Shown: in pieces, positions 1 through 64,000 of the stretch
Layout: each line of letters opens with the position of its first letter
How positions within the stretch are numbered: the stretch's first letter is position 1
Source: Bacillota bacterium
GTDB taxonomy: Bacteria > Bacillota > Sulfobacillia > JBFLWA01
Length of the DNA stretch: 64,000 bases
Assembly: GCA_040758135.1 (NCBI GenBank)
Contig: JBFLWA010000001.1
Span: 134,713 to 198,712, forward strand
Direction of reading: 5' to 3'
Position numbers and translations under genes: made by a program
The notes under the pieces: model-generated
Databases searched by the model: none
What the model was told of the DNA's origin: nothing
Seen by the model: the letters and a program-made list of their open reading frames with translations, nothing else

Positions 1-600
1 ACTCGAAGACCGGGTGGTCCTGACCGATGAGATGAGGTCGCCCGGCTCAGGCGTCATGAGCCATCTGGATGCCGGGGCCTCGCTGACCGTCAAGGACCTG
101 GCCATGCCAATGACTATCGTCAGTGATAATACGCCACCGACCACCTGGTCGACCTGCTCGGCAGAGCCAAGGTAGTTGAGGAATCCATGCACTCACTGGG
201 CCTTTCAGAGATCCGGGTGGGCGATGACTGCCTGGGCCTGATCCTCTCCCTGGCTGGCCTGGACCCTGACGCTGAGAGCCCGGAGAGCGTGGTCGAGATG
301 TGGAGTCGCCCTGGGCGGGGCGAGGTTCATCCAGGGAGTGGAGTTTACCTGGCCAATCCTCAGCCGCCAAACCCTGAACCAGCGCCTCGCGGCTCTGATC
401 CCGGTTCTGGTCAGGTACGCCCACAAGACAGGCACCATCGGCGGGACCCGCAATGACTGCGGTATCTTCTACTTCGAGAGTGCCCGCTGGACGTTTGCAC
501 CATGGTCAAGGATCTTCCCTCGGAGTCCGGCGCCTACGCGGCCGGTGACCAGGCTATGGCCCGGGCGGTGCTGGCCGGCTACGAAGCTTTCGGCAAGTAA
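1..600 (+). pseudogene. class A beta-lactamase gene remnant (3' two-thirds; 5' end outside window; multiple frameshifts)
   Basis: Class A motifs are scattered over three frames: 'MTIVSDNT' (SDN loop) in frame 2, 'SDNTATDHLVDLLG...' continuing in frame 3, 'RYAHKTGTIGGTRND' (KTG box) in the 338..775 ORF, and the C-terminal '...AAGDQAMARAVLAGYEAFGK*' in a fourth frame. Confidence 0.5.
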
Positions 601-787
601 TCCAGTGGCGAGGAGGGGTCAGAGTGCTGGGCGAGACCATCAAGGAGTTGGGGCGAGAGAGCAGCTGACACTGCAGAATCTTGCATACGGTTCTGCCCTA
701 CCGCTACACCAATATCGGCAAGCAGCGGGCGAGTATGGTCGTGGGCATGTGCCCGCCGACTTACTAGAGAAATGAGGAGGAAGAGAA

Positions 788-2221
788 ATGCCCAAGTATG
801 ACTGGAGTCTCTACGAGGCCTACGGTAACAAGCTGGTAGAGCGGCACGAGGTGCCCGGGGCTGGCGTGGGCGTCGCCGTCGATGGCAAGCCCGTCTATTT
901 TCACGGGTTTGGCTCGCGCGATGTGGAGAAGAAGCTGCCTGTCGACGAAAACACCGTCTTTGGCATCGGGTCAGTCACCAAGTCGTTCACCGCGGTGGCC
1001 ATCATGCAACTACAGGAGCAGGGCAAGCTGTCGGTCGAGGATCCGGTAGTGAAGTATCTGCCTGAGTTCAGGGTGGGCAAGGATGGCGCTGAGAAGGCGA
1101 TGACCATTCACCACTTCCTGACCCACACGGCCGGTCTGCCGCCTCTATCCTCGCTGAACCGGGCGTTGGTGCGAAGCCTCCTCAAAGACGAGAGCGTCAT
1201 GCAGGGCCCGGCCGCCGAGAAGATCAAGGCACTGCCGCCCATCGACACCTACGAGGAGCTAATGGAGGCCATCGCTAGCCAGGACTTCAGGCTCCTGGGC
1301 GCTCCGGGACTGCACTTTAGCTACTCCAATGATGCCTATGCGCTCCTCGGCACCATTGTGGAGCGGGTGAGCGGCGTCAAGTACGAGACCTACGTAGTGG
1401 AGAACATCCTGAAGCCGCTGGGCATGACTCGCAGCACGTGGGAGCCCAAAGACCTCCCGGCCGATGGTAATGTGGCGATGCTCTACACCTCTAAACGGGA
1501 AAAGGGCAAGGACATCGTCTTCGCGTCGCCGAGCTGGTGGGAATGCCCGTCTATGGCTGCCGCCGGTTTTCTCAAATCAACTGTTGCAGACATGCTTAGG
1601 TATGCAGAGATATACCGGACTGGCGGGGTCAGTGGCGGTAACCGCATCCTCTCGGCCAAGAGCATCGAGCAGATGTCGACCCCCTACATTGAGCCCACTC
1701 CGGGTTACTGGTATGGCTATGGCCTGATGGTTCACCCCAACTACCACGGCGTCTCCCTGGTGGAGCACGGCGGCAACATCAAGGGCGCCTCCGCCTACTT
1801 CACTGCCATCCGCGAGAAGAACATCACCGGTGTGGCCCTGACCAACCTGGTGAGCTCGCCAGGGGGCGACCTGGTCCTGGGAGCGGTCAATGTTCCGCTG
1901 GGCGTCAAAGCGAACGCTCGTCGCTTCCACTACCCGAAATACCACTGCCCGACCGAGCGGCTCAGCAAGTACGAAGGCCTCTATGTCTCGGAAGAAGGCG
2001 CCAGCGTGAAGATTACCGCCAAGGAGGGCGGCCTCGACCTGGAGATGGAGGGCGGGGTGCACTTTAAGGCCCGTCCCACCGGCCTAGACCTTTTCGCCAT
2101 GCGCCGCAAGGGCCTGGAAAGCCAGATGCGCTTCCTGGTCAACGCCAGGGGCGAAGTCTGTGGCCTGGCTTTCGGCTTCCGCATCGTGCGCAAGGTAGAC
2201 GCCAAGCCTCAGACGGCGTAA
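788..2221 (+). CDS. serine hydrolase of the beta-lactamase/transpeptidase fold (S12 family; D-stereospecific aminopeptidase / DD-peptidase-like, with C-terminal extra domain)
   Basis: 477-aa ORF; SxxK 'SVTKS'; YxN 'YSNDAY'; RBS GAGGAGG 6 nt before ATG. Confidence 0.8.
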   Translation: MPKYDWSLYEAYGNKLVERHEVPGAGVGVAVDGKPVYFHGFGSRDVEKKLPVDENTVFGIGSVTKSFTAVAIMQLQEQGKLSVEDPVVKYLPEFRVGKDGAEKAMTIHHFLTHTAGLPPLSSLNRALVRSLLKDESVMQGPAAEKIKALPPIDTYEELMEAIASQDFRLLGAPGLHFSYSNDAYALLGTIVERVSGVKYETYVVENILKPLGMTRSTWEPKDLPADGNVAMLYTSKREKGKDIVFASPSWWECPSMAAAGFLKSTVADMLRYAEIYRTGGVSGGNRILSAKSIEQMSTPYIEPTPGYWYGYGLMVHPNYHGVSLVEHGGNIKGASAYFTAIREKNITGVALTNLVSSPGGDLVLGAVNVPLGVKANARRFHYPKYHCPTERLSKYEGLYVSEEGASVKITAKEGGLDLEMEGGVHFKARPTGLDLFAMRRKGLESQMRFLVNARGEVCGLAFGFRIVRKVDAKPQTA

Positions 2222-2440
2222 GACCCCGGGTTCTGGTTCTCCATACTGGCTGCCTCGGCCTATGAACAGCTACGCCATGCTCCACGGCTGCCAGTCATGG
2301 GCCTTCAATGTCGTGGTCGAGGTGGAAGGGGAGGCCCAGTACCGACTTCCTCGGCAAGTGCGGCAATAGCGGCAGTTCCAGTGAGCCTCACCTGCACTAC
2401 AACACGATGGAGAAGCCGATGATGTTCGAAGCGCCAGGGC
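2222..2440 (+). pseudogene. M23 (LytM-type) metallopeptidase C-terminal remnant
   Basis: 'LGKCGNSGSSSEPHLHYNTMEKP' matches the M23 signature 'IGxVGxTGxSTGPHLHFE'. No start codon is present. An upstream 'YAMLHG' piece lies in another frame. Confidence 0.3.
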
Positions 2441-2562
2441 TGCCGGCGCGCTTTTCCGGTTTCCGCTGCGGGATGGGGCTGGGTCCTGACCGCGGTCCGG
2501 CCCTCGATGACCAAACTCTGCGGGCCAGCCAATTCGTTACTGCCGAGGAGGATTCCCGAATA

Positions 2563-3381
2563 ATGAGGCTCTACATTTCCGTTGACATGGAAGGGATCAC
2601 CGGGGTCACCGACCGAGACTACCTACTACCCGACGGCAGACATTACGAGCGGGCTCGCCAGCTGCAGTTGAGCGACCTGAACGCGGTGATCGCCGCGGCC
2701 CGGGCCCACGGGGTTCAGGAGATAACGGTCAACGACTCCCACAACACCATGACCAACATTGTCCTGGAGAAGCTGGACCCGGCCGCCCGGCTCATCTCGG
2801 GCAACAACAAGCAGCTCTCCATGGTCCACGGCATCGAGGGCCATGACGCCGCCATCTTCCTGGGCTACCACGCCCGGATGGGGACTGAGCGGGCAATTCT
2901 CGATCACACCTACTATGCCGGTCTGGTCTACGCGGTGAGGCTGAACGGGGTGGAAGTGGGCGAGACCGGGATCAACGCCGCTGTCGCCGGACATTTCGGG
3001 GTTCCGGTGATCATGGTCAGTGGCGATCAGGCGGTAGCTGTGGAGGCGCTCGATCTGCTTCCGCAGGTCGAGGTGGTCCAGGTGAAAGAGGCCCTGAGCC
3101 GCACCACGGCCAACTGCTTACCACCCAACACCACCGATGGCCTCCTGCGCGAAGGCACCCGGCGTGCGCTGGCTGGCCTTGACCGGCAGGTGCCGCTCAA
3201 AGTGGGGACTCCGGTCCGCCTGGAGATCGATTTCCTGACCTCCCAGATGGCCGACCTGGCCGAGGTCTATCCCGGTGCCGACCGGTCCGGACGTACTATC
3301 GCCGTTCAGGGTGAGAGCATGCTTGATGCTTTCCGGGCCTTTCTGGTTGTACTGAACCTGGCGCGTTCGCCGCTCCTCTGA
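2563..3381 (+). CDS. dppA: D-aminopeptidase DppA (peptidase M55)
   Basis: 'MRLYISVDMEGITGVTD...' is a typical DppA N-terminus; GAGGAGG RBS 11 nt upstream of ATG 2563. The track ORF 2308..3381 has a non-coding 5' extension. Confidence 0.8.
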   Translation: MRLYISVDMEGITGVTDRDYLLPDGRHYERARQLQLSDLNAVIAAARAHGVQEITVNDSHNTMTNIVLEKLDPAARLISGNNKQLSMVHGIEGHDAAIFLGYHARMGTERAILDHTYYAGLVYAVRLNGVEVGETGINAAVAGHFGVPVIMVSGDQAVAVEALDLLPQVEVVQVKEALSRTTANCLPPNTTDGLLREGTRRALAGLDRQVPLKVGTPVRLEIDFLTSQMADLAEVYPGADRSGRTIAVQGESMLDAFRAFLVVLNLARSPLL

Positions 3382-3435
3382 TCAGAGGAGCTACATACCT
3401 GCCTGAGGGCAGGAGATTACCGGAGGCGATGATCT

Positions 3436-4767
3436 ATGGTAAGTTTCATCGAAACCTACAAACAGAGAACGCCGGGCTCAGCCGCCCTCTATGAACGGGC
3501 CGCGCGGGTCATGCCCGGCGGAGTTTGCCACAATCCCCGCTTCTACCCGCCCTACCCGGTCTACCTGAGCCGGGCCGAGGGGAGCCGAATCTGGGATGTC
3601 GACGGCAACGAGTACATTGACCTTTGGATGGGCCACTATTCTCACATCCTCGGCCACAACCCGGAGCTGCTGCGAACGGTGATCGCCGAGACTGCGGCCC
3701 AGGGAACCCACTGGGGGATCGTCCATGAGCACCAGATCGCCTATGCCGAGGATCTCTGCCGGGTGATTCCCAGTGTTGAGCGCGTGCGGTTTGGCGTCTC
3801 CGGCACTGAGGCCACCATGTACGCGGTTCGCCTGGCCCGCGCCTATACCGGGCGCAAAGCCATTCTCAAGGTGCGCGGCGGCTGGCACGGCTCGGGAAGC
3901 GAGTTGGTGAAGGCGGTCCACTCCCCGATGGATATTCCGGAGAGCGCCGGGATTTTGCCTGAGGTGATGGAGTACACCAAGACGATATCGTTCAATGACA
4001 CCGAGGGAACGGTCGCAGCCATCCGCCAGTGCGGGTCAGATCTGGCGGCAGTGATCATTGAGGCAGTCGGCCAGAATTTCGTTCCCCCCCATCCTAACTA
4101 TCTTGAGACGGTCCAGGCGGAGACCCGCAAGGCTGGCGCGGTCTTCATTCTCGATGAAGTAATCACCGGTGGTCGGCTCGGCCCCCAGGGCGGCCAGGGT
4201 CTCTACGGCCTCAGCCCTGACCTGACCACCATGGGCAAGGTCTTGGGTGGCGGAATGGCCCTTGGCATGGTCGGCGGTCGCAAGGAGATCATGGACCTGG
4301 CTGACCCGACCCGGGGTCTGCCCAAGGGGAGAGGTGTCATCATGGGTGGCGGCACCTTCTCAGCCATGCCCCCGGCCATGCGGGCCGGCAAGGCCATCTT
4401 CAACTACCTGGAAGAACATGCGGCCGACCTCTATCCCAGCCTTCAGGCCAAGGGCGAGAGGGTCAGGACCGGGGTCGAGGAAGCGTTCCGCGAGGTCGGC
4501 ATCTCGGTTCGCTGCTTCGGGGTGGGTTCCCTCTACAGTGTCACCTTCCCCAAGAGCGAGGACGCTGACATCTACGACATCGAGACTATTGAGACCCGCT
4601 CCGATGTACGCCGCCGTGACCATGAGTTCCGGTTGCGCATGCTCAACCACGGAGTCTACACCATGTGGGGTGGAGGCGCGATCTCCGATGCCCACAGTGA
4701 AGAAGACCTGGATCGGATCATCGCCGCGGCTCGGGCCGTTGCCCGGGAAATGGCGGCTGAGCAGTAG
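3436..4767 (+). CDS. class-III PLP-dependent aminotransferase (glutamate-1-semialdehyde aminomutase-like)
   Basis: 443 aa; aminotransferase class III fold with 'GHNPELL' and 'WG' segments; an internal lysine-containing motif region is present. Confidence 0.75.
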   Translation: MVSFIETYKQRTPGSAALYERAARVMPGGVCHNPRFYPPYPVYLSRAEGSRIWDVDGNEYIDLWMGHYSHILGHNPELLRTVIAETAAQGTHWGIVHEHQIAYAEDLCRVIPSVERVRFGVSGTEATMYAVRLARAYTGRKAILKVRGGWHGSGSELVKAVHSPMDIPESAGILPEVMEYTKTISFNDTEGTVAAIRQCGSDLAAVIIEAVGQNFVPPHPNYLETVQAETRKAGAVFILDEVITGGRLGPQGGQGLYGLSPDLTTMGKVLGGGMALGMVGGRKEIMDLADPTRGLPKGRGVIMGGGTFSAMPPAMRAGKAIFNYLEEHAADLYPSLQAKGERVRTGVEEAFREVGISVRCFGVGSLYSVTFPKSEDADIYDIETIETRSDVRRRDHEFRLRMLNHGVYTMWGGGAISDAHSEEDLDRIIAAARAVAREMAAEQ

Positions 4768-4870
4768 ATTCACCCTCCTCATGGCCCGTGGGCAATGTTA
4801 CACAGGCCGCCCCTTTTTCGGGCAGCCAAAGGCCCGCGGGGCATCCCGCGGGCCTTGGTCTGAAGGCATT

Positions 4871-6655
4871 CTACTTTGTCAGTTCCAGGAACTCATCGAG
4901 GTCGGCGATGGCTACATCGATGGCCTTCTGCCAGAACTCGGGCTGCTTCAGGTCAACACCCAGGTGCTTGCTGGCCAGATCCTCCACCAGCATGCGCCCG
5001 GTGTCCCTGAGCAGAGCCACATATTTCTCCTCGAAGGCCGCGCCCTCCTCCATGGCCAGGGCGTAGACGCCAGCGCTGAAGAGGTAGCCGAAGGTGTACG
5101 GGAAGTTGTAGAAGGGCACCCCGGTGTTGTAGAAGTGAAGCTTGGATGCCCAGAAGCGCGGATGGTACTCATCGAGGGTATCGCAGAATGCCTCCTTCTG
5201 CGCCTCCAGCATCAGCTGACTGAGCCGGTCAGCGCTGACCATGCCTTTCTTACGCTCTTCGTAGAACCGGGTTTCAAAGAGGAAGCGACAGTGGATGTTC
5301 ATCAGCAGAGCGACACTGCGGGCCAGCTTATCCTCCATGAGGCTGACCTTTTCCTCGGTGGTCTTAGCCGAACGGAGGGCCGCGTCGGCCACCACCATCT
5401 CTGAGAAGGTGGAAGCGGTCTCGGCCACATTCATAGCATACTGCTGGGCCAGAGGCGGCAGGTCATTCATGACGCTCTGGTGATAGGCGTGACCGAGCTC
5501 GTGGGCCAGGGTGGCCACATTGTTCACAGTGCCGGAGAAGGTCATAAACACTCGCGACTGTTTCATCACCGGCGAGCTCGAGCAGAAAGCGCCGGGCCGC
5601 TTGTGGGGGCGATCTTCGGCTTCGACCCAACGCTCTTTGAAGGCCCGGGTGACCAGTTCAGCCATGCGGGGGCTGAAGGGAGCGACCTGCTCAACGATGA
5701 AGTTGGCCGCCTCATCGTAGCTGACCTTGCGTCCGGTGCCGCCGACCGGCGCCGAGACGTCGTGCCAGCTGAGCTTGTGCACACCAAGTAGCTTCTTCTT
5801 GCGCTGGAGGTAGGCCACGACCCGTTCCTTGTTGCGGTCAATGGTATCCCACATGACTTCCAGCGTCTCCCGGCTCATGCGGTTCATCTCCAGCGGCTCC
5901 CGCAGCACATCTTCCCAGCCACGGGCCCGGTAGACGCTAAGACGGTAGCCGGCCAAATGGTTTAAGGCTGTGGCGCAGAAGTCCTCCACTTCGGTCCAGG
6001 CCTTTTCCCACTTCGCGAAGAGGTCAGCGCGGACCGAGCGGTCGGGGTCAGCCATGAGATTGGAGGCCTGTCCGGCCGAGAGAACGACGCTCTTGCCGTC
6101 ACGCTCGAAGGGGATGCGCACCTTGGAGACGGCGGTGTTGTAGACGTTGCCCCAGGCGTGGTAGCCATCGACCGACAGGCTGTTGATGAGCATCTCCTGC
6201 TCGGCGGGGAGTTTGTCCTTGGCCCGCTGCCGGCGCTCGTTGAGGTTGAAGGCGATCGGCGACAGCTCGGGAGCTTCCATTAGCCGGCTCCAGTCGGCAT
6301 CGGGCACCTTGAGAATGAACTCGTCGAGTTTGGTCAGGACGGAGGCCAGAGCCGCGCCGAGCTGACGCGAGCGGCCACCGATGATGATCGCCTTCCTGTC
6401 CTGATCGTTTTGGGCGGCCAGGCAGCCGATGAACGATCCGGCGTGGCGCATCCTCACTGACACATCCTGGATTCGGTCCAGCAGGTTGGTCCAGAAAGAG
6501 ACCTGGGCCGGATCACCCGGCAGCGACTGGACGTGGGCAGACAGGGCCCGAATATCCTTCTCCAGGGTCTCCAGGTAGGCGGCCAGTTCCGGCGAGTCGC
6601 TGCCTCCCGGGAAGTAGGAGTCCAGGTCCCATTTGGGGTTGAGATTCTTGAACAC
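4871..6655 (-). CDS. pepF: oligoendopeptidase F (M3B family)
   Basis: HExxH 'HELGHAYH'; about 594 aa from the GTG at 6655, with AGGAG 10 nt upstream. The track ORF extends further with no RBS. Confidence 0.85.
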   Translation of the reverse strand: MFKNLNPKWDLDSYFPGGSDSPELAAYLETLEKDIRALSAHVQSLPGDPAQVSFWTNLLDRIQDVSVRMRHAGSFIGCLAAQNDQDRKAIIIGGRSRQLGAALASVLTKLDEFILKVPDADWSRLMEAPELSPIAFNLNERRQRAKDKLPAEQEMLINSLSVDGYHAWGNVYNTAVSKVRIPFERDGKSVVLSAGQASNLMADPDRSVRADLFAKWEKAWTEVEDFCATALNHLAGYRLSVYRARGWEDVLREPLEMNRMSRETLEVMWDTIDRNKERVVAYLQRKKKLLGVHKLSWHDVSAPVGGTGRKVSYDEAANFIVEQVAPFSPRMAELVTRAFKERWVEAEDRPHKRPGAFCSSSPVMKQSRVFMTFSGTVNNVATLAHELGHAYHQSVMNDLPPLAQQYAMNVAETASTFSEMVVADAALRSAKTTEEKVSLMEDKLARSVALLMNIHCRFLFETRFYEERKKGMVSADRLSQLMLEAQKEAFCDTLDEYHPRFWASKLHFYNTGVPFYNFPYTFGYLFSAGVYALAMEEGAAFEEKYVALLRDTGRMLVEDLASKHLGVDLKQPEFWQKAIDVAIADLDEFLELTK

Positions 6656-6816: not shown

Positions 6817-7124
6817 GTGAGACTGACGGAGAGTGAGCTCCGCGACCTGGCCAGAAGACTGACCTGCCAGTCGAGGAGGCCATGGGATACCTGCTCGAGT
6901 TCGACGGTATCGGTCCGAAGACGGTGTCCTGCGCGCTGCTCTTCGCCGCTCACCGGCCCGTCTTCCCGGTGGATACCCACATCCACCGCATCGCCAAACG
7001 CCTGAAGTTAGTGCGGGAGAAGGCCGAATTCTCTCCTGGGGGCAAGCAACTCGCTTTTCGCCCACTACTTAGCCACCTGAAATATTCTTCTCCAGAAGGA
7101 ACCGCGGGGGAGCAGCCAGAATAA
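6817..7124 (+). pseudogene. endonuclease III / HhH-GPD DNA glycosylase remnant (internal deletion plus frameshift; no FeS C-terminus)
   Basis: 'LLEFDGIGPKTVSCALLFAAHRPVFPVDTHIHRIAKRL' is the HhH-GPD core (LPGVGRKTANVVL...AVDTHIFRV). An upstream 'ESELRDLARRL' piece lies in another frame. The N-terminus and the Cys cluster are missing. Confidence 0.5.
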
Positions 7125-7162
7125 TCCGGAGTGGACCATTAGCCCAGAAGGAGGTAGGGAAT

Positions 7163-12029: not shown

Positions 12030-12584
12030 CTACGGTATCAAGCTCGCTAAATCGTCCGCTGGCCAGTATTTACGAAGGGTCAGCCAGGCCCGGCGGGAGT
12101 GGTGGGCCTGGCTGACCACCCGCACGCGGCGGACCCGCTGGCCGCTGATGACCTCGAGGTCCTGGATCAGCTGCAACGGCGCTACCATCATGGGCATTGA
12201 GCCAGTCAACCATCTCCACGCGGACGGCTCGCTGTTCCGCGAGAATCTCCTTGCCTCCGGGCTGACCGTGGCCGGGCACCACAATTTCGACATCCAGATC
12301 ATTGACCCAGTCCAGCGCGGCCAGCCAGCGCTGGAAGCCAGCGGTGAGGAAGAACGGAGGCCGCCCTCGGAAGACCAGGTCAGCTCGGGATGGCGGGCCT
12401 TATAGACCAGATAGCGAACATCGCTGGCAATACCGGCGAAGCGGTCACGCAGACTTTCACCATCCTGGGGCAGCAGCGAATCGATGACGACCAGCCCCTC
12501 GGCGGTCAGCACGCAGCCCCCGCTCACCGTGCCGCTCAGGTTGGTGAACCAGTAGCAGTGGGGGGGTCAGTTTATCCATGGTAG
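12030..12584 (-). pseudogene. metallo-beta-lactamase-fold hydrolase, frameshifted (G7 homopolymer at 5' end; at least two frame changes)
   Basis: The minus-strand reading 'GGCVLTAEGLVVIDSLLP...' continues in a second frame as 'LDWVNDLDVEIVVPGHGQPGG...' (MBL C-terminal PGHG), then returns to the first frame. The His-motif region 'YLVYKARHPELTW' is degenerate. The ATG is followed by a C7 run (G7 on plus strand, 12561-12567) that puts the ORF out of frame. Confidence 0.4.
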
Positions 12585-13539: not shown

Positions 13540-13790
13540 TTAGTCGAACTTGCGCCTCCCCTGATCGGTGATGGCGTAGGTCTTACTGCTCCCGGACTTA
13601 GCGTGAATCTCGATATCGCCAGCCTCGAGCACGCTCAGAGCGGGATAGAGTCCGCCGAAGCTAACCGTCCAGAAGCGAGCGTGTGGTGCCAGAAAACCGG
13701 ACATGACGCCCAGGCAGGGAAGAACCTTCGGGCGTCGAAAAATGCCGTAGACATCAGGTGTGAGGAGGCTGGACCATGTTTGATCTGGTC
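13540..13790 (-). pseudogene. PadR-family winged-helix regulator, N-terminally disrupted
   Basis: Minus-strand frame reads '*PDQTWSSLLTPDVYGIFRRPKVLPCLGVMSGFLAPHARFWTVSFGGLYPALSVLEAGDIEIHAKSGSSKTYAITDQGRRKFD*', which matches PadR 'LL..p.yGYei...W.vs.GtLYPAL.rLE...r.kyY.lTd.Gr'. The open frame begins right after a TGA with no start codon until the internal ATG at 13704, which would give only a 54-aa fragment. Confidence 0.4.
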
Positions 13791-26351: not shown

Positions 26352-27302
26352 ATGAACCGACGGTACTTGGCCACCATCTATATCACCCTCCTTTTCGTTG
26401 GGGGTCTGGCCATCACCCTCTGGGAGGTTGCCCGTGGTTCCTTCTATGTCAGCTGGGGTGCGGTTTTTCTGGCTGCCCTGACCATTGGCTCGACCTTCCT
26501 CACCCTCCAGACCGAGGGCGGGGACCTGCACGCCTCTGATGGCTTCCTGGCCATCTCCTATCTCAACTACGGCCTGCCTTTTTTACTGCCCGTGGGGATC
26601 CTGATGTGCGTAACGGAGGCTATTGTCCATCCCGGGCGCCGTCCCATACTGGTGAATATCGGCATTTCCGTCTGGAGTATGGCCGCAGCCGGGAGTCTGC
26701 TGGAACTGGTAGCCCCGGGGTTGCCGCCGGGGTTGTCTTTTGAGATGAGGCAGGTTGTCCTGGGGCTAATCTTCATGGCTGCTACCACTTTCATCTCCTC
26801 TGTGCTGGTGGCGGTACTGGTGGTACTCAAAAACCGCCATCACGACATAGGAGCTGTCCTCAAAGAGCTCCTCCTCAGCCCGCCCGGGATGCACATCCTA
26901 CTGTGCGGGGTAGTGGTGGTTCTACTCCTACCCACTTGGCCGCCGCCATCGATGCTCAGCTATTTATACCTTCTGATCTTTTTCTTGGTTTTTGGCTACT
27001 TGTTCTACTACTACGCCAAAGACCGGGAGAGCCGGGCCCTCTCCCAACGGGTCCAGCACCAGAATGAACAGCTTACCTCGGTGATGAACTCGGTGGGAAC
27101 CGTCTCGGCCATGATGTCAGTGGACCGCACCATCGATCTTCTCATCAGCGAGGCCCAGAAGGCCGCGGGCTGCCAGCGGATCCTGGTCCTGCGCTGCGAT
27201 GAGTCCACCGGCCTCTACCGGGTGACCCAGTGGGTGGGAGCCTCTGATGAGCTGGTCACCTGCTTTGAGCAGGGCGTCTGGGTCAACCTTGACCCCGGGT
27301 AG
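26352..27302 (+). CDS. N-terminal polytopic membrane sensor region plus first half of a GAF domain, ending at an in-frame TAG (first part of an interrupted GAF-HD-GYP gene)
   Basis: 316 aa; hydrophobic segments; C-terminal 'RTIDLLISEAQKAAGCQRILVLRCDESTGLYRVTQWVG' is a GAF beginning; same frame as the next ORF. Confidence 0.6.
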   Translation: MNRRYLATIYITLLFVGGLAITLWEVARGSFYVSWGAVFLAALTIGSTFLTLQTEGGDLHASDGFLAISYLNYGLPFLLPVGILMCVTEAIVHPGRRPILVNIGISVWSMAAAGSLLELVAPGLPPGLSFEMRQVVLGLIFMAATTFISSVLVAVLVVLKNRHHDIGAVLKELLLSPPGMHILLCGVVVVLLLPTWPPPSMLSYLYLLIFFLVFGYLFYYYAKDRESRALSQRVQHQNEQLTSVMNSVGTVSAMMSVDRTIDLLISEAQKAAGCQRILVLRCDESTGLYRVTQWVGASDELVTCFEQGVWVNLDPG

Positions 27303-27305
27303 TTC

Positions 27306-28703
27306 GTGGGGTCGGAGGGGGATGCCGGCACTGTGAAGGTTATCTCCACCACCGCGCTTCCCCTGCCGCAGAGAGTGATCGAGCTGCTGGCCGATACCTC
27401 CCGGGCAGCCGTGTTTCCCATGCCGATCGGTGCGAAACTGGCCGGAATTGTCTGCTTCCTGTGGAAGCGGGAGCCGCGCCTGGATGAGTTGGATCTCCGG
27501 GTGCTCAGAACCCTGATCCGGCAGGGTGCATTGACCGTAGAGCGAGCCAGCTACCTGGAGGAGCTCTCGACCACCGTCTCCTATCTAAGGTCACTTCAGT
27601 CGGTTAGCCGGTCGCTCCAGGGGGCGTTGCGCCTGAGTCACACCTTCCATCTGATTGTGTCAGGTGTTCAGATGGTATTTGGCTTCGACCGTATCTCTAT
27701 CTACCTGGTGAACTGGGAAAAGGAGGCTATCGAAGGGGTTCTGGAGTGCGAGGGTTATGTCCCGCCCCGGAGCATCGGCCACCTCCGGCAGCCTCTGGAC
27801 GCTGGCACCAGTGTCTACGCCGATCTGGCCCACGGCCCCACTGCTTACCGGCCCCTCCAGGTTCGGCGGGCCCTCCTGGAGGATGGGACCATCGGTCCCG
27901 AGCATTTGGTGGCCTGCCTGATCCCGCTGGTGGTCAGGGGGAAGGTGGTGGGGATCCTTGAGGTGGGCAACCTGCGCAGCAACCGGCCGATCACTGAGGC
28001 GACCATCGCCCATCTGGCCCCCTTTGCCAGCCAGGCGGCCGCGGCCATCGAGTCGGCCAGCCTGTACCAGAATATCCGCACCCTTTTCCTCGAAACGGTT
28101 AGTGCTCTGGTGGCCGCCATCGATGCCAAAGATCCCTACACCAGCGGCCATTCCCGCTCGGTCACCCATTATGCGGTTATGCTGGCTAAGGCGATGGGGC
28201 TGAGCGGCAAGGAGATAGAGCAGGTTCAGTACGCAGCCCTGCTCCACGATGTGGGTAAGATCGGCATCTCCGGAGACATACTGAACAAGCCAGGGCCGTT
28301 GGATCCCGGGGAGTGGGAAATCATGCGCAAGCACCCGGAGATCAGCGAACGCATCGTCCGCCAGATCGAGCGAATGGAGGAAGTGGCCCAGATGGTGCGC
28401 TCCCACCAGGAGCGCTACGATGGCGGCGGTTATCCCGACGGACTGTCCGGAGAGGAGATCCCTCTGGGAGCTAGAATACTGGCTGTGGCTGATGCCTTCG
28501 ATGCCATGACCAGCAACCGCCCATACCGCCGGGCCCGCACTAATGCCGAGGCCCTGGCTGAGCTCAGGGCGGGGGCGGGGACGCAGTTTGATCCCGGTTT
28601 GGTGGAGGTGTTTGAGACAGTAATGCTCGGCCGTATCGATATTCCCAATGACGAGGAGGATGAAAAGAGGGGGAGTCGGGCGGTCGGCGGCATAGGTATT
28701 TGA
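27306..28703 (+). CDS. GAF-GAF-HD-GYP phosphodiesterase (C-terminal part of interrupted gene)
   Basis: 'HDVGKIGIS...' and 'YDGGGYPDGL' are the HD-GYP signature; GAF domains lie upstream. The ORF continues the frame of 26352..27302 after a single TAG at 27300-27302. Confidence 0.8.
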   Translation: MGSEGDAGTVKVISTTALPLPQRVIELLADTSRAAVFPMPIGAKLAGIVCFLWKREPRLDELDLRVLRTLIRQGALTVERASYLEELSTTVSYLRSLQSVSRSLQGALRLSHTFHLIVSGVQMVFGFDRISIYLVNWEKEAIEGVLECEGYVPPRSIGHLRQPLDAGTSVYADLAHGPTAYRPLQVRRALLEDGTIGPEHLVACLIPLVVRGKVVGILEVGNLRSNRPITEATIAHLAPFASQAAAAIESASLYQNIRTLFLETVSALVAAIDAKDPYTSGHSRSVTHYAVMLAKAMGLSGKEIEQVQYAALLHDVGKIGISGDILNKPGPLDPGEWEIMRKHPEISERIVRQIERMEEVAQMVRSHQERYDGGGYPDGLSGEEIPLGARILAVADAFDAMTSNRPYRRARTNAEALAELRAGAGTQFDPGLVEVFETVMLGRIDIPNDEEDEKRGSRAVGGIGI

Positions 28704-28726
28704 CGAGACTAGGGGGAAGGACCGGT

Positions 28727-29400
28727 TGAACTTGGCCCTGATCGGTCTCGGCGTTATCGTACTGATCCTGGCCGTGGCGGTGGAGGTAGCCGTTATCGCC
28801 CTTAAGCTAACTGGCCTGGAGATCGATAAAGCTCGGTTCCAGGCTCTTTCCGCGTCACGGGTACCGGCTTCACTACCCGCGAGGCTGAGCTGATCACCCG
28901 CGACCGTACCCGCCGCAAGATCATCTCGGCCCTGATGATCCTGGGCAATGTGGGGCTGGCCTTCGCCATTGGCTCCCTTCTGCAGCTGTTTGCATCGCGG
29001 CCGCCCTCCGGGCAAATCCTCGGGTTGGGGCTGGTTCTGGCCGCCATCTATTGGGCCTTCTCCGACCGCTGGCTCTTGCGGCGCCTGGACCGCCAGATTG
29101 AGAGGCGGTTGGAGCGGAGTCTGCGCAAGCAGCCGGTGGAGGAGGTGCTGCGCCTGGGTCCCAACCAGGGGGGTGGCTGAGGTGGTGCTCAGTACTTCGT
29201 GTGTCATGACTGGGAAGACTCTTACCGAAGCGGGTATTCGCGAGCTAGGAATTCTGGTTTTGGACATAGAAAGAGGTGGAGATGTCATCCACGCCCCGGT
29301 TGCCCACGACCGCCTGCAGAGCGACGATATCCTCATTGTGTACGGACACCGCCAGGCCATCAGCGAACTGGCCCGGCCCAAGGGGGGACCACCTGATTAC
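28727..29400 (+). pseudogene. TrkA-C-domain membrane protein, frameshifted (two frame changes, one at a G6 run)
   Basis: Piece 1 from TTG 28727 'MNLALIGLGVIVLILAVAVEVAVIALKLTGLEIDKARFQALSA'. Piece 2 in the next frame 'FRVTGTGFTTREAELITRDRTRRKIISALMILGN...LRLGPNQGGG*'. Piece 3 in a third frame 'AEVVLSTSCVMTGKTLTEAGIRELGILVLDIERGGDVIHAPV...' is the TrkA-C domain. The second shift is at GGGGGG 29166-29171. Confidence 0.45.
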
Positions 29401-47346: not shown

Positions 47347-47590
47347 ACTACACCGGGACGGACTGCCCTTCGCCGAGGCTTGCGCCAGGGTGATCGGCCC
47401 CGAGGCCGCCCCCGGAAACTACCTTTCTCCTCCAGCCTTCCCCAGGTGCAAAGCTCGGAATGACCGGCTGACCGGAAAAACGGGCCGAATCGCCCCAGAT
47501 CCTAGCCCGGCTCATCCTCCTGGCCAGGTCTTTGTGGACCGCCCGGGCGAAGTCCTCGACCGTGCTACCCCGGGATAGGATGAACGGTTT
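47347..47590 (-). pseudogene. remnant of a TGS-domain GTPase (YchF/DRG-like C-terminus)
   Basis: The minus-strand frame opens right after a TGA and reads 'YVKPFILSRGSTVEDFARAVHKDLARRMSRARIWGDSARFSGQPVIPS...*'. This resembles TGS 'G.T..DFA..IH.dl...f..A.vwG.S.k...Q.VG'. No G-domain lies upstream. Confidence 0.3.
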
Positions 47591-47772
47591 TACATATCAT
47601 CGCTTCCGGTGTAAACCCGAATCAGACCACTGATCTATTACGGACTTTAAACTACAGTGGCCCGTCATCCGTGACTTCAGTTTCCAGTAACTGCTGCCGG
47701 AAGGTGTCGGATGGTGTCACAATGAACTTAAGAGGTAATAGTTATAAACATAGTGGGGGGGGAGGGGGCGGA

Positions 47773-52293: not shown

Positions 52294-52694
52294 TCAGGCT
52301 GCAATAAGGCGGTAGAGTGAGAAGAGCCCCAGGAGGCTAGCTGGCTCCAGCTGATGAGCCGCCCCCAGGAGAAGGGGCGGGGTCGGTGGGAAGTGGCCAG
52401 CAACACCAGGCCCAGGCCGGTCACCAGGATCCTGATATATAGCCTTACATAATAGGCCGACAGGTTCACCGCCAGCAGGACGGCGATGGTGGTGGTTAGG
52501 CTGCTTAGGGCAAAGAGCAGAACTATGCGAAGCGGTTCTGACAGGTGAAGGTGGAGCACCGCCCGCCAACCTTGGCGGCAGACCATGAGTAACAGGATGG
52601 GGGTGAGCAGTGTGCCGTACCCCATACCCAGGGTGGAATCGATGAACTCGGCGGCGAACGCCAAGATTACCAGGAGGCCGAGGCTGTATAGCAA
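52294..52694 (-). pseudogene. TauE/SafE (DUF81) anion-exporter family membrane protein, truncated/frameshifted
   Basis: The first ~105 aa show three TM helices ('FIDSTLGMGYGTLLTPILLL'), followed by low-complexity nonsense that overlaps cysC. A hydrophobic continuation 'PPTPPLLLGAAHQLEPASLLGLFSLYRLIAA*' lies in another frame and ends at 52294. Only about half of a normal DUF81 protein is present. Confidence 0.4.
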
Positions 52695-54252: not shown

Positions 54253-54264
54253 GGGGAGTGGATA

Positions 54265-57378: not shown

Positions 57379-58569
57379 ATGGTGACAAACGAGCATCCCA
57401 TTATGCGTCACATCTATCGGCTGGCGGTGGAGATCGGGCCACGTGGCTCGGCCACCCGGGCCGAGCGCAAGGCGGCTGAATACGTGGCGGAGGAGCTCAG
57501 GGGAATGGGACTGGAGGGGAATCTGCAGCCTATTCGGGCCATCCCCACCTTCTCCTGGCCCTACATGATTCTTTATCTATGGCCATGGCTGGCGCTGGCC
57601 GTCACTCTGGTCCAGCCTCTGGCCGGAGGAATCCTGGCCCTGGTCGGCGCAATTCTCTTCTTCGCCGAGCTCAACACCTATGAGCTGGTGGCTGCCGTTC
57701 TCCCCAAGTCCGAAGGCTACAATGTAGTGGGCCGGCGGGCGCGGCCGGAGGCGGGGCAGCGGGTGGTGATCATGAGCCACTTAGATTCCTCCAAAGCAGC
57801 TCTCAATTTTAGCCCCAAGATGGTACCCGGGTTCCGGTCATCTTTCATCATGATGGTCATCGCCGTGGTTCTCTCCGGTCTGCTGATCTTCGCCTATGGT
57901 CTTAGTGACTGGGCACCACTGCGCTGGGCGAGCCTGGTTCCCGCGGGCTACCTGCTGATTACCGTCGGCTTCCTGGTCCACCGGGAGTTCTGGAGCCGGT
58001 ACACCCATGGTGCCAACGACAACGCTTCCGGCGTCGGGGTGATGCTGGCTCTGGCCGAACGGGCCGCCCGCGGCGATGAGGAGCTGGAGGGGCTCGATCT
58101 CTGGTTCCTGGCGGTCAGTTCGGAGGAGACCAGCTCGGCTGGGGTGGAGGGGTTTCTCAGGCAATATGGCGGGGAGATGAAGGATGCCCTGTTCATCAAT
58201 CTTGACAATATCGGGGCCGGCCGGGTTCACTTCATGGCCGGTGAGGGGATGTTTCCTACCTACAAGGCGGATAGGCGGCTGCTGGCGCTCTGCCAGAAGG
58301 TCCAGAAGCAGCGGCCCGACCTGGATGTACGCCAGGGGGTCTATACCCTGATGACCACCGATTGTACCCGTATCCTGATCAAGGGCTACCGGGGCATCGG
58401 TTTTCTGGCTGTTGACGAGCGGGGACTGCTGCCCAACTGGCATTGGGTCACCGACACTTACGAGAATGTGGATCCGAAGACAGTGGAGACTGCCCTGGAA
58501 TTCGTCTGGGCGATGCTGGAGGAACTGAACCAGGCCGATCCGGGCGTCACTGACCGAGCAGTGCCTTGA
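57379..58569 (+). CDS. M28-family zinc peptidase with membrane-spanning insert
   Basis: ATG 57379 (GGAGGTG RBS); 'HLDS' and 'NDNASGVGVMLALAE' M28 metal-ligand motifs; about 4 TM between the halves. Confidence 0.7.
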   Translation: MVTNEHPIMRHIYRLAVEIGPRGSATRAERKAAEYVAEELRGMGLEGNLQPIRAIPTFSWPYMILYLWPWLALAVTLVQPLAGGILALVGAILFFAELNTYELVAAVLPKSEGYNVVGRRARPEAGQRVVIMSHLDSSKAALNFSPKMVPGFRSSFIMMVIAVVLSGLLIFAYGLSDWAPLRWASLVPAGYLLITVGFLVHREFWSRYTHGANDNASGVGVMLALAERAARGDEELEGLDLWFLAVSSEETSSAGVEGFLRQYGGEMKDALFINLDNIGAGRVHFMAGEGMFPTYKADRRLLALCQKVQKQRPDLDVRQGVYTLMTTDCTRILIKGYRGIGFLAVDERGLLPNWHWVTDTYENVDPKTVETALEFVWAMLEELNQADPGVTDRAVP

Positions 58570-58756
58570 ACACAGCGGTAATCGCGCTGGAGACCTTCGG
58601 CAGCTCGACTCCCAGAGCCAACAGGATCCCCAGGGCCAGGGAGAGGGCGGTCAGAGCCAGGAAGACAACCAGTTCCCGCCAGTAGCCCTGCCGGATGAGC
58701 CCAGGTCCCTCCAGCAGAGCGACGGTCAACCCGGCCAGCAAGACGAGGGCTATCAT
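58547..58756 (-). CDS. small 2-TM membrane protein, distal gene of the ger operon (possible 'D'-type subunit)
   Basis: 69 aa; two hydrophobic helices; start overlaps the stop of the B subunit gene. Confidence 0.4.
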   Translation of the reverse strand: MIALVLLAGLTVALLEGPGLIRQGYWRELVVFLALTALSLALGILLALGVELPKVSSAITAVFKALLGQ

Positions 58757-58757
58757 A

Positions 58758-59849
58758 TCAGGCTTCCTTCCGGGGGAGCCCTCGCACCATGGCCACCACC
58801 AGGGTCAGCAGGGGGATCCCCAACTGGAAAGGCAGGGCGTAGAGTGGCCAGACCAGGTCGGCGAAGGCGATGTTTTCGGCGACATTGTCGAAGTTCAGAA
58901 TGGCCAGGATAGCCATGAGTGTCCCGATGGGAGTGGCCAGTGGCCGGTATGATCGGAGCCCCAGTAACTGGGCGGTGCCCAGGGTGGTCCCGTATAGCAG
59001 TACGGCGACCTTGATGAACCCCATGGTCAATAGACTGGTGTCCACTAGGATCTCCAGCCGGGTGATGACATCCAAGACATCGATCTGTTGGACCGCAGTA
59101 TACGAGGGGTAAGTGGAGATAGCGCCAGTGGCCCCGAGGACGGCAGTATTGCGCGCGGCCGCCAGGGCCAGGGTAAGGCCGGCGATTATTAGTGCCCGGA
59201 CTACTGCCCCCTTGGCCCGCCGGGCGTTATTGAGGAAGGGGATGACCATCAGGAAGGCGACCGTCTCAGCGAAAGGAAAGGTGGCTGAGCGGTGGGCCGC
59301 CCAGAGCAGCTGCCCCGGGGGTGTCGCCAGGACCGGTTGCAGGTTTCGGAGATCCATCTCCGGAATCATCAGGGCGACGGTGAGAGCCACAGTGGCCAGG
59401 AGCAGAGGGACCAGCACCTCACTGCAGCGGGCCAGTACCTCAATGCCGTTGCGCGTGACCCAGATGCAGACCCAGACAATGAGAGCCAAGAAGGCCATGG
59501 GCGGGGTCTTAGGCATGCTCGTGATGGTGAAATAATCACTGAAGTTCCGGAGAACCAATGAACCCAGGTGGAAGAGAAACCAGAGGAAAGCCGCGGAGAT
59601 GGCGGTTCCTAGGAAGGGTCCATATACAGCCTGGCTGATCTCCACCAGAGTGCGGCCGGGGAAACGCTGGGCCAGGGCGAGATAGATCAGGGCAAAGGCC
59701 AGCCCCTCAGCCAGGCCGATAAGAATGGCAATCCAGGCATCTTGTTTGGCGGCCTGGCCGGGCATGAGCACCAAGGCTGAGCCAATGGTGAAGCCGATGA
59801 CCAGGTTAGCTAGCTGTGAGCCGGACATTCGGCCCTGTTCCAACCCCAT
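58758..59849 (-). CDS. spore germination protein B subunit (GerAB/GerKB family; APC-type permease)
   Basis: 363 aa; 10 TM; 'GSQLANLVIGFTIGSALVLMPG' N-terminus typical of GerxB. Confidence 0.8.
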   Translation of the reverse strand: MGLEQGRMSGSQLANLVIGFTIGSALVLMPGQAAKQDAWIAILIGLAEGLAFALIYLALAQRFPGRTLVEISQAVYGPFLGTAISAAFLWFLFHLGSLVLRNFSDYFTITSMPKTPPMAFLALIVWVCIWVTRNGIEVLARCSEVLVPLLLATVALTVALMIPEMDLRNLQPVLATPPGQLLWAAHRSATFPFAETVAFLMVIPFLNNARRAKGAVVRALIIAGLTLALAAARNTAVLGATGAISTYPSYTAVQQIDVLDVITRLEILVDTSLLTMGFIKVAVLLYGTTLGTAQLLGLRSYRPLATPIGTLMAILAILNFDNVAENIAFADLVWPLYALPFQLGIPLLTLVVAMVRGLPRKEA

Positions 59850-62667: not shown

Positions 62668-62700
62668 GGACCATCCCTTTCCGGCATGAGTTCTCACGCC

Positions 62701-62735
62701 TAGTATGGCCCGGTTCACTCCGGTACTCTCGCGGG
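62701..62735 (-). promoter_or_regulatory. forespore sigma-F/G-like promoter upstream of the ger operon
   Basis: Minus strand GAGTA-16/17nt-GGGCCATACTA (-10 resembling GG..A.A.TA / CATnnTA), about 34 nt before the ATG. Confidence 0.3.
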
Positions 62736-62958
62736 CAAGGTGTTCTGATGGCTACCAGCTGTCCTGGCCGGTCAGCCTCTCTACACCATGACCTGCTGGC
62801 CTTGGACGGTATCGAGAGTTAGCCGGGTCACGAAGTCCAGCCGATCAGGGTCGATATTCCGGTACCAGCGCTCCAGAGTGACCGCGGCGCGCCTGGTTCC
62901 TCCCGCCCCAAAACCCGCTGGAAGTTGACAGGCTATGCCCCTAGTATCTCCCGCCAGG

Positions 62959-64000
62959 CTAGACAGTGATCCCGATGAACCAGCGGGCGAGGTAGAAGTA
63001 GACTACCAGTGCTACCGCATCGACGATGGTGGTGATCAGGGGACCGGCCATGATTGCCGGATCCAGCCGCAGCCGCTGGGCGACCATAGGCAGAACGCCG
63101 CCGAGAATCTTGGCCAGCATCACCGTTGTTACCAGAGTGGCTGATACGGTCAGAGCAATGGGTGTGGAATAACCCTCGAAGAAGCGGATGCGGACGAAAT
63201 TGAGGGCGGCCAGCCCGACCCCCACCAACAGGCTGACCTGCATCTCCTTCCAGATCACCTTCAGCATATCCCGGAGTTCGATCTCCCGCAGGATGAGGCT
63301 GCGGATAACCAGGGTCGAGGCCTGTGAACCTGCGTTACCCCCGGTGTCCATCAGCATTGGGATGAAGGTGGCCAGGGCGACCACCGAGGCCAGAGTTGTC
63401 TCGAAACTGCGGATAATATAGCCGGTAAAGGTGGCTGACACCATCAGGACCAGCAGCCAGACAATGCGCTTACGGGCCAGGGCCATAATGCTGGTGTTCA
63501 GGTATTCTTCGTCAGACGGGACCAGGGCCGCCATGCGGTGAAAGTCCTCGGTAGTTTCCTGGTCGATGACATCTACGATATCGTCAATGGTGATGATTCC
63601 CACCAGGCGGTCTTCTCCGTCCACTACCGGGATGGCCAGAAGGTCGTACTTCTTGAAGATCCCGGCGATGTGCTCCTGGTCGTCATGGGTAGTGACCCGG
63701 ATCGGGTCGAGCCGCATGACTTGGCCCACAGTGGTTTCCGGGTCGGCGATAACCAGGTCACGCAGAGAGACGGTACCCGTCAGGCGGCGCTCGGAATCCG
63801 TCACATAGCAGGTGTAGATTGTCTCCTTGCGCGGGGCGATCTGCCTGATGCGTGCCAGCGCCTCGCCGGCGCTCTGATCGGGCCGGAGGGCGACATACTC
63901 GATGGTCATCAGGCTCCCGGCCGAGTTCTCAGGGTAGTTGAGGAACTGGTTAATCAGGCGGCGCTCGCTTTCGGGCGAGTTGCGCAGGATTTGGTTGACT
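62959..64000 (-). CDS. mgtE: magnesium transporter MgtE (5' end beyond window)
   Basis: CBS pair 'GTVSLRDLVIADPETTVGQVM' and MgtE TM domain 'PMLMDTGGNAGSQ'. The frame stays open to the window edge ('...SAGSLMTIEYVAL'). Confidence 0.8.
   Translation of the reverse strand, partial: VNQILRNSPESERRLINQFLNYPENSAGSLMTIEYVALRPDQSAGEALARIRQIAPRKETIYTCYVTDSERRLTGTVSLRDLVIADPETTVGQVMRLDPIRVTTHDDQEHIAGIFKKYDLLAIPVVDGEDRLVGIITIDDIVDVIDQETTEDFHRMAALVPSDEEYLNTSIMALARKRIVWLLVLMVSATFTGYIIRSFETTLASVVALATFIPMLMDTGGNAGSQASTLVIRSLILREIELRDMLKVIWKEMQVSLLVGVGLAALNFVRIRFFEGYSTPIALTVSATLVTTVMLAKILGGVLPMVAQRLRLDPAIMAGPLITTIVDAVALVVYFYLARWFIGITV

Follow-up and report, generated by a model that had tools for sequence, protein, structure and literature searches.

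The 64,000-nucleotide stretch of DNA analyzed here in its entirety (the window) raises the question of whether the broken genes of a MAG record true gene decay or errors of the consensus and, if they are real, whether they reflect relaxed selection on the genome as a whole. The host is an uncultivated, spore-forming, Bacillota-like bacterium with a GC content of 62%. In total, nine accessory loci were found to be disrupted or shrunken (Table 1). The preliminary description had listed these nine positions, and all nine were borne out, each being truncated or interrupted and resembling the named family at a statistically supported level. All of the 50 remaining genes in the window appear to be full length, as Pfam shows for the large ones. 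The 50 include dnaE, polA, the RND pump, pyk and gerABC, in agreement with the earlier statement that the large housekeeping genes are uninterrupted. The disrupted loci thus represent ∼15% of the gene loci in the window (9 disrupted versus 50 intact). Five of the nine are strong cases (the bla-like, TrkA-C, GAF-GAF-HD-GYP, M23 and EndoIII-like loci); the MBL-fold and TGS loci are supported by profile HMMs, and the evidence for PadR and the TauE half is weaker.

Table 1. Positions of the disrupted loci, of two other genes mentioned in the text and of the parts of the window compared with run SRR10029121.
Feature	Position	Strand	State or basis
Class A beta-lactamase-family (Beta-lactamase2) serine-hydrolase pseudogene (bla-like)	1..600	+	three 1-nt frameshifts
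Peptidase M23 remnant	2277..2538	+	match to a relative's 356-aa M23 protein
HhH-GPD/endonuclease III-like glycosylase remnant (EndoIII-like)	6817..7124 (core 6870-7025)	+	both ends deleted
MBL-fold remnant	12232..12542 (supported part, C-terminal piece, 12232-12384)	-	NCBIfam and PDB
PadR-type winged-HTH remnant	13543..13752 (core 13543-13674)	-	Pfam PadR
Membrane-sensor (TM)-GAF-GAF-HD-GYP gene, c-di-GMP phosphodiesterase-type	26352..28703	+	in-frame TAG
Membrane protein (~225 aa) with C-terminal TrkA-C domain, pseudogene	28696..29400	+	two frameshifts
pyk	29619-31370		full length
SBP_bac_5 gene	45248-47014		full length
TGS-domain remnant, DRG/YchF-related GTPase C-terminus	47462..47596	-	Pfam TGS
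TauE/SafE (TSUP), first half only	52314..52694	-	Pfam TauE and alignment with L118
Part compared with SRR10029121	1-13381		1 SNP, no gaps
Part compared with SRR10029121	19619-31797		5 SNPs, no gaps
Part compared with SRR10029121	44709-59257		23 SNPs, no gaps

The GAF-GAF-HD-GYP gene is interrupted by a single codon, a TAG at positions 27300-27302 that falls within the first GAF domain. The TAG allele is carried by the window and by run SRR32167787, while SRR10029121 has CAG at the same codon and consequently an intact gene of 783 aa. The split reported earlier at this position is therefore confirmed, and the TAG is a C-to-T SNP segregating between the sampled populations. Pyrrolysine insertion or read-through at the TAG was rejected on account of the CAG found at that codon in the other population. 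An adaptive loss of function, which would alter c-di-GMP signalling and be selected in one population, would fit the difference in allele between populations and the presence of a nonsense change among only 29 SNPs in 40 kb. It would also fit the GTG two codons past the TAG, which could permit restart of a predicted soluble GAF-HD-GYP protein. Drift, however, predicts a single SNP equally well, and selection for the nonsense allele is considered improbable.

Two further genes retain their full length but are broken by single-nucleotide shifts. In the bla-like gene, whose initial 188 nt fall upstream of the window (seen in L081), the shifts are located near 133 (-1), near 305-320 (+1) and near 485 (-1). 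A single frame matches Pfam Beta-lactamase2 with an E-value of 3e-19 (69.6 bits); repair of the three frames raises the domain score to 169 bits (1.2e-49) and restores a full-length match (profile positions 1-210 of 214). The SxxK, SDN and KTG motifs are still readable. Despite these motifs, a true class A beta-lactamase was rejected for this locus, since the score after repair, 122.8 bits, falls short of the NCBIfam bla_class_A cut-off of 200; judged by its sequence, the putative product is a class A-related serine hydrolase and not a curated beta-lactamase. In the TrkA-C gene, homologues of 210-248 aa are collinear across frames +1, +3 and +1 (E 3e-37); the first shift, of -1, is at 28854/5 (TT to T), and the second, of +1, falls in the G6 run that occupies 29168-29173. 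Phase variation through this run was considered and rejected, as the partner frameshift lies outside any repeat and all samples checked there are alike.

The remaining six loci are short remnants that cover at most 20-60% of the length of their families. The M23 remnant matches residues 291-353 of its homologue with 68% identity (E 3e-25), and an N-terminal segment resembles residues ∼29-52 (E 2.3, non-significant alone). An N-terminal piece thus appears from the alignment to be joined to a C-terminal piece, with ∼240 codons deleted between them. In a relative (GCA_030024035.1, L084) an intact 356-aa M23 gene is located immediately upstream of the M55 gene, the same neighbor as in the window. 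The EndoIII-like remnant occupies the spacer between the divergent pepF and tldD genes, and its core corresponds to residues 112-163 of a 256-aa ORF in L001 (61.5% identity, E 6e-15), where the intact HhH-GPD ORF is found at the syntenic place, upstream of tldD. The comparison with orthologous loci in close relatives that had been proposed earlier could be made only for these two loci, both of which are intact in the relatives, because no close relative was available: a scan of GTDB representatives with TldD gave none above 72% amino-acid identity (L001), the next being at ∼60%, and a metagenome scan with Sat gave nothing above about 50%. Together with the intact HD-GYP allele, a syntenic or conspecific counterpart that is intact is known for three of the loci.

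The other four remnants were recognized by their family profiles. The C-terminal piece of the MBL-fold remnant bears a VVPGHG motif and matches NCBIfam TIGR04558 (2.8e-8) and subclass B1 (1e-3), and all 22 of its 22 PDB matches are metallo-beta-lactamases; neither single frames nor the joined construct gave a Pfam match. A segment in another frame (12375-12542) abuts this piece and resembles, by visual comparison of motifs, the N-terminal part of the fold; if that assignment is correct, the middle of the fold would have been deleted. The PadR remnant covers positions 25-73 of the 75-position Pfam profile (E 2.8e-5; 24.4 bits, below the gathering threshold of 27) and matches NCBIfam with an E-value of 0.028; it is missing the C-terminal helix as well as ∼24 positions at the start of the profile. 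The TGS remnant scores 32.9 bits against a gathering threshold of 22.2 (E 6.8e-8, profile positions 13-41 of 60). Its best PDB match is the C-terminus of DRG/Rbg2, and the GTPase domain is gone. The TauE half covers profile positions 1-108 of 237 (E 9e-4; 19.4 bits versus a gathering threshold of 32.6) and can be aligned with a TauE gene of 272 aa (residues 5-170) that adjoins cysC in L118. The second half of the domain is absent, and the 173-aa ORF runs into cysC out of frame. No RNA element was detected by Rfam in any of the remnant spacers, at the gathering threshold or at E <= 0.05, so that the spacers are left unexplained by any Rfam RNA family.

Several of these short loci might instead be normal, functional short genes, i.e., a half-size TSUP/TauE protein, a mini-PadR and hypothetical proteins of 160-173 aa. 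The NCBI annotation of MAGs designates the TauE-like ORF (173 aa) and the MBL-region ORF (160/165 aa) as hypothetical proteins, and their predicted products could be expressed. TSUP proteins are thought to derive from a duplicated unit of four transmembrane segments, which would be compatible with a half-size form. Moreover, the reading frame of the M23 remnant continues into dppA (M55), whose true start is 2563, and the final TrkA-C fragment is likewise in frame with the DUF2007 gene starting at 29401. In the TauE-like and MBL-region ORFs, however, family homology fills only part of the frame, the rest being out of the family frame or overlapping cysC, and word-indexed searches with both fragments matched only the organism's own copies. 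In the PadR piece the initial third of the domain is missing, and no convincing start codon was seen for it. Short functional genes are thus an improbable explanation for these loci.

Whether the frameshifts and the stop could stem from errors of sequencing or assembly (miscalled homopolymers or a chimeric MAG consensus, for instance) was addressed at the assembly level: the window was compared with Logan assemblies, built from de Bruijn graphs, of other SRA runs. SRR10029121 differs from the window by 29 SNPs and no indels over 40.1 kb, and SRR32167787 and SRR29635773 are 100% identical to it over the parts compared, again with no indels. The bla-like gene is present in SRR10029121 in the identical frameshifted state. 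The fragmentation of the TrkA-C gene is unchanged in SRR10029121 and SRR32167787, and the same two runs show no sequence difference at the TGS site or in the TauE half. The disruptions are therefore regarded as real, since identical indels and remnants recur in independent assemblies, as the preliminary description had argued in favor of pseudogenization. Its reservation that homopolymer errors could account for part of the pattern can largely be set aside: only one of the five verified frameshifts, that in the G6 run of the TrkA-C gene, lies in a homopolymer of at least 6 nt, and most of the other 29 of the 30 such runs in the window (including G7, C7 and G8) are located inside undisrupted genes. 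The five verified 1-nt indels all fall in two genes of ∼0.7 kb, whereas the remaining ∼56 kb of coding sequence has none, a clustering with a probability of ∼8e-6 under uniform error; neither concentration of indels in homopolymers nor scatter proportional to ORF length, the signature of error, was found. The source being a MAG, and one shift lying in a G6 run, the split ORFs with 1-nt indels do resemble long-read homopolymer artefacts. Unlike such artefacts, the indels recur across independent runs and with an independent assembler, in runs that differ mutually by SNPs. They lie mostly outside homopolymers and are accompanied by a base substitution and by large deletions, the latter accounting for six of the loci. 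Error is accordingly a highly improbable source of the pattern.

It is very probable that the window contains true bacterial pseudogenes of dispensable genes, caught at successive stages of decay and either fixed or segregating in a natural population. The earliest stage would be represented by the single, still polymorphic nonsense SNP of the GAF-GAF-HD-GYP gene, and the next by full-length genes with two or three 1-nt indels, in which catalytic motifs can still be read (the bla-like and TrkA-C genes). The last stage would comprise the remnants of 30-130 codons left by large deletions (M23, EndoIII-like, MBL-fold, PadR, TGS and the TauE half), which occupy what would otherwise be intergenic spacers. 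In the proposed course of events, selection would be lost gene by gene, an inactivating mutation would follow, and further indels would accumulate before erosion by deletional bias, while purifying selection would hold the essential genes intact. That function was lost, that the decay is neutral and that the loci follow this order in age are all predicted features of this scheme.

The preliminary description had termed the decay selective and had linked it to relaxed selection or lifestyle restriction. The housekeeping genes are indeed spared, but this is no special pattern, because purifying selection yields such sparing trivially in any genome. Relaxed selection or lifestyle restriction was not established. 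The intact coding density of the window is 87.7%, as opposed to the values well below ∼80% that would indicate a low density. No transposase or insertion-sequence gene was detected in Pfam scans of the window ORFs, and pN/pS between populations is 0.43 (25 coding SNPs, pS 0.0013; below neutrality at P = 0.03), a value that is ordinary for near-identical strains.

A genome-wide reductive evolution under relaxed selection, caused by a low effective population size or by confinement to a particular niche (e.g., deep-subsurface or syntrophic), would nevertheless give some meaning to the local density of broken genes. In free-living bacteria, pseudogenes account for ∼1-5% of genes, a level exceeded by the proportion in the window. 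A further, tenth remnant is located ∼2 kb upstream of the window and corresponds to the C-terminal half of an OppF-like ABC ATPase in which Walker B and the H-loop are substituted, and highly degraded remnants, which are rare in Salmonella (PMC2916853), persist here. In addition, a relative co-occurs in SRR29635773, and the accession series neighboring that of the relative (JASEJE, 'Yes' MAGs) holds MAGs from Yessentuki mineral-water groundwater; the habitat information found in the literature concerns this series and not the organism of the window. Against these points, the coding density is typical of free-living bacteria, insertion-sequence genes were lacking in the Pfam scans of the window, and the pN/pS ratio is unexceptional. 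Moreover, polA and fpg are intact, as are the sporulation-germination, transport and regulator genes. Genome-wide reduction is thus doubtful, and so is its premise that the window typifies a genome-wide pseudogene load of at least 10%, since a single 64-kb window cannot represent the genome. That the window fairly samples a load of at least 10% in a deeply branching, endospore-forming and possibly subsurface member of the Bacillota, whose closest GTDB-representative genome shares only ∼72% amino-acid identity, is considered unlikely. If true, it would imply that a free-living spore-former is in the early phase of genome reduction and retains degraded remnants for unusually long.

Gene decay of this kind is already known, and the window presents ordinary bacterial gene loss at a moderately high local density. 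The main value of the observations lies in quality control and annotation: the broken genes of this MAG are biological and should therefore be annotated as pseudogenes, while at present some of the loci are labelled hypothetical proteins or lost within intergenic spacers. The 64-kb stretch also compactly illustrates each stage in the decay of bacterial genes, with one event still segregating. Should the density hold genome-wide, the lineage could be a candidate for the study of gene loss in an uncultivated spore-former.

Among known systems, the host-restricted genomes of Mycobacterium leprae and Sodalis glossinidius (PMC7067036, PMC3091646) are similar in their many disrupted accessory genes, in the mixture of frameshifted genes with short remnants and in the intact core replication genes. 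In contrast, their coding density is ∼50% versus 87.7% in the window, in which the Pfam scans detected no IS-type gene and whose host has no known host association. The pattern is also comparable to the erosion of pseudogenes in enteric and free-living bacteria (Kuo & Ochman 2010, PMC2916853; PMC2817411), where a nonsense mutation or small indel is followed by deletion, in keeping with the deletional bias of bacterial genomes (PMC2817411). As in the dynamics described there (PMC2916853), accessory genes of low connectivity are hit, and the youngest event, here the TAG SNP, is specific to a strain or population. Salmonella pseudogenes, however, are mostly young and strain-specific (PMC2916853), whereas in the window six of the nine loci are highly degraded and common to all of the sampled populations.

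The window carries nine disrupted or remnant genes among about 50 apparently intact ones (Pfam scans of ORFs), and these disruptions are most simply explained by the ordinary formation and erosion of pseudogenes. The GC content is 62% throughout and there are 0 N bases. Among the intact genes are dnaE, pyk, polA-fpg-coaE, sat-cysC, mgtE, gerA/gerC/gerB, a PTS/GH4 pair, numerous peptidases and an RND pump together with its TetR regulator. To judge from the germination genes, the organism would be an endospore-former of the Bacillota type. The only RNA-family matches in the window (Rfam) were two tRNA-Leu genes and one TPP riboswitch, complete and upstream of thiT, which a default scan misses, as it scores 53.9 bits against a gathering score of 54.3. 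A G13 homopolymer (15729-15741) precedes the likely TTG start of dnaE (15748, MFVHLHVHTEYSLL) by 7-19 nt, at the place expected for a Shine-Dalgarno sequence, and the listed 1216-aa ORF begins too early. The full 447-aa mgtE gene, with its MgtE_N domain, is intact in locus L167; thus, the 316-aa ORF in the window is not a truncation.

Coordinates of the disrupted loci and of selected intact features in the window
Feature	Position	Strand	Description
Locus 1	1-600	+	Class A-related serine hydrolase; Pfam Beta-lactamase2 3e-19 in a single frame
Locus 2	2277-2538	+	M23 remnant; residues 291-353 of the M23 protein of GCA_030024035.1 kept, 68% identity, E 3e-25
Locus 3	6870-7025 (core)	+	EndoIII-like remnant; only residues 112-163 kept relative to the L001 ORF, 61.5% identity, E 6e-15
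Locus 4	12232-12542	-	MBL-fold remnant; NCBIfam models match the C-terminal "VVPGHG" piece
Locus 5	13543-13752	-	PadR remnant; Pfam profile 25-73/75, E 2.8e-5, under gathering score
TPP riboswitch	20552-20659	-
Locus 6	26352-28703	+	Membrane-sensor-GAF-GAF-HD-GYP gene; TAG at 27300-27302 within first GAF domain
Locus 7	28696-29400	+	Membrane protein pseudogene; C-terminal piece is a TrkA-C domain (Pfam)
pyk	29619-31370		Pyruvate kinase with PEP-utilizer domain
SBP_bac_5	45248-47014		Peptide-binding protein gene
Locus 9	47462-47596	-	TGS remnant; Pfam 32.9 bits, above gathering score, profile 13-41/60 only
Locus 8	52314-52694	-	TauE remnant; Pfam profile 1-108/237, E 9e-4
mgtE	62959-64000	-	Crosses window end

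Each of the nine regions was translated in all frames, and the pieces were compared with Pfam, NCBIfam, PDB sequences and homologues. Family similarity and a disruption were found at every locus named in the preliminary description, the PadR and TauE calls being the weakest of the nine; the minus strand of the MBL, PadR and TGS loci had gone unstated there.

Two genes are of full length and frameshifted. The reading path of the class A-related gene runs f1 to f0 to f1 to f0, with changes near 133, 305-320 and 485. After three repairs, and with the N-terminus supplied by L081 (which extends the window upstream), the product matches the Beta-lactamase2 profile over positions 1-210/214 (E 1.2e-49) and retains the SVFK, SDN and KTG motifs; its score lies below the NCBI class A cut-off, and it is therefore not a curated beta-lactamase. 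For the TrkA-C gene, the middle frame retrieved 378 homologues, mostly of 200-250 aa (full-library phmmer), whose collinear alignment runs over three segments of the window, in frames +1, +3 and +1, and thereby places the shifts: -1 at 28854/5 (TT to T) and +1 in the G6 run at 29168-29173. The indel signs alternate in both genes (-1, +1, -1 in the first and -1, +1 in the second), such that their distal parts regain the original frame; this alternation could be chance. In the TrkA-C gene, the middle segment, which is out of frame, contains stop codons. In the GAF-GAF-HD-GYP gene, the 316-aa and 465-aa ORFs share one frame. At position 27300, the window and SRA run SRR32167787 have T (TAG), whereas run SRR10029121 has C, so that the codon reads CAG (Gln) and the gene is called intact, at 783 aa; the stop is thus a recent, segregating nonsense mutation.

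The other six loci are deletion remnants, and for two of them an intact counterpart is at hand, in line with the orthologue comparison that had been proposed. In GCA_030024035.1, M55 lies 14 nt downstream of an intact M23 gene of 356 aa (among carriers of M55 this genome is the closest relative, at 64% identity), and L001 carries a 256-aa HhH-GPD/EndoIII-like ORF directly upstream of tldD. An upstream piece of the M23 remnant in another frame matches residues ~29-52 weakly (E 2.3), which would fit the internal loss of ~240 codons. The MBL remnant had no Pfam match; it scored 2.8e-8 with TIGR04558 and 1e-4 to 1e-3 with several subclass B1 models of NCBIfam, and all 22 PDB matches at E <= 10 were metallo-beta-lactamases, placed at the correct C-terminal position. 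An abutting piece in another frame bears a visual resemblance to the N-terminal part of the fold. The TauE remnant aligns to residues 5-170 of a 272-aa TauE gene adjoining cysC in metagenome locus L118; the second half is absent and the ORF continues out of frame into cysC. The best PDB matches of the TGS remnant are to DRG1 and Rbg2, in their C-terminal TGS domains, and NCBIfam indicates a YchF-related GTPase. Lost stop codons lead gene callers to chimeric products: the M23 remnant (2350-2562) runs in frame into dppA, giving a 320-aa call in the Logan k-mer assemblies, and the TrkA-C fragment (29170-29622) into DUF2007, giving a 146-aa call.

Across its first 14 kb, the window resembles a peptide-uptake and peptidase neighbourhood in decay. 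The gene order in GCA_030024035.1 is oppBC-SBP-M23-M55; only an OppF-like half is left here, just upstream of the window. This OppF/DppF-like ABC ATPase fragment (127 aa; L081 5408-5791, about 1.8-2.2 kb upstream of position 1) matches the ABC_tran profile at 82-136/137 only, with substituted Walker B ("GDKPVSALD") and H-loop ("FIARDLS"), and is probably a tenth remnant of the same neighbourhood. Run SRR29635773 contains both the window organism and that of GCA_030024035.1, whose neighbouring accessions include "Yes71" MAGs with groundwater in the Yessentuki mineral-water deposit as their source; from this co-occurring relative we infer no more than a hint of such a habitat. A TldD scan of GTDB species representatives recovered no close relative, the best match (72%) being L001, a syntenic contig labelled Chloroflexota MAG110, followed by Bacillota MAGs at ~60%.

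Sequencing error, which the preliminary description had admitted in homopolymers as a partial cause, is essentially excluded as the source of the frameshifts and the stop. The nine loci are reported within spans covered by the assemblies of three separate runs, with 0 indel differences throughout: SRR10029121 differs by 1, 5 and 23 SNPs and 0 gaps (1-13381, 19619-31797 and 44709-59257, respectively), while SRR32167787 (19619-47153 and 47127-57178) and SRR29635773 (53172-64000) are 100% identical to the window. As SRR10029121 is SNP-distinct, the indel disruptions and remnants recur in a demonstrably different population, which bears out the earlier reading of real pseudogenisation. Of the five verified 1-nt indels, a single one lies in a homopolymer of at least 6; the window has 29 further runs of that length, and most of these, G7, C7 and G8 among them, fall within undisrupted genes. 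Five random indels would all fall in two ~0.7-kb genes of ~57 kb coding sequence with P of about 8e-6, and miscalls cannot produce the large deletions at six loci. The 15-53 kb contigs obtained by the k-mer assembler would suggest accurate reads. SNPs between the two populations are unevenly spread (23 in 14.5 kb versus 1 in 13.4 kb), which may reflect recombination or locally different histories. The SRR32167787 contigs end at ~31.78, ~47.15 and ~53.17-53.20 kb, and the break at 53.17 kb is shared by SRR29635773; one of the breaks falls inside a tRNA-Leu. SRR10029121 is contiguous through 47-53 kb, and its 53-kb contig ends too at ~31.8 kb. These breaks are probably due to strain micro-diversity or short repeats.

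Pseudogenes account for 1-5% in free-living bacteria, and the local density here (9 of ~59 loci, plus one just outside) is high, above that range. Such a density, together with degraded remnants common to all sampled populations, unlike in Salmonella, might be taken as a sign of a genome in advanced reductive evolution, but other features of the window argue against this or leave it unsupported: intact genes occupy 87.7%, neither transposases nor IS-type genes appeared in the Pfam scans of the ORFs, the composition is uniform, and pN/pS between two populations is 0.43 (14 nonsynonymous, 11 synonymous, pS 0.0013), a level normal for near-identical strains. The large housekeeping genes are indeed intact, as had been stated; the sparing of dnaE, polA and others is nevertheless uninformative, since selection removes essential-gene disruptions in any genome, and calling the decay "selective" adds nothing beyond purifying selection.

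Ordinary pseudogene formation would here be seen as a decay series, from a single polymorphic nonsense SNP (GAF-GAF-HD-GYP), through two genes that are still of full length, have two or three small indels each and keep readable catalytic motifs, to six remnants that large deletions have cut to roughly 30-130 codons. The affected genes (cell-wall/peptide hydrolases, a glycosylase beside intact fpg, regulators, a K+-related membrane protein, a DRG-like GTPase and a sulfite-exporter-like permease) are plausibly all dispensable. The phenomenon itself is already well known; these observations are of use mainly for annotating the genes correctly and as a starting point for counting pseudogenes genome-wide in an uncultivated spore-former. 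The series agrees with the pseudogene dynamics and deletional bias described for bacteria (PMC2916853, PMC2817411). It differs from the picture in Salmonella (PMC2916853) in that the degraded remnants persist here.
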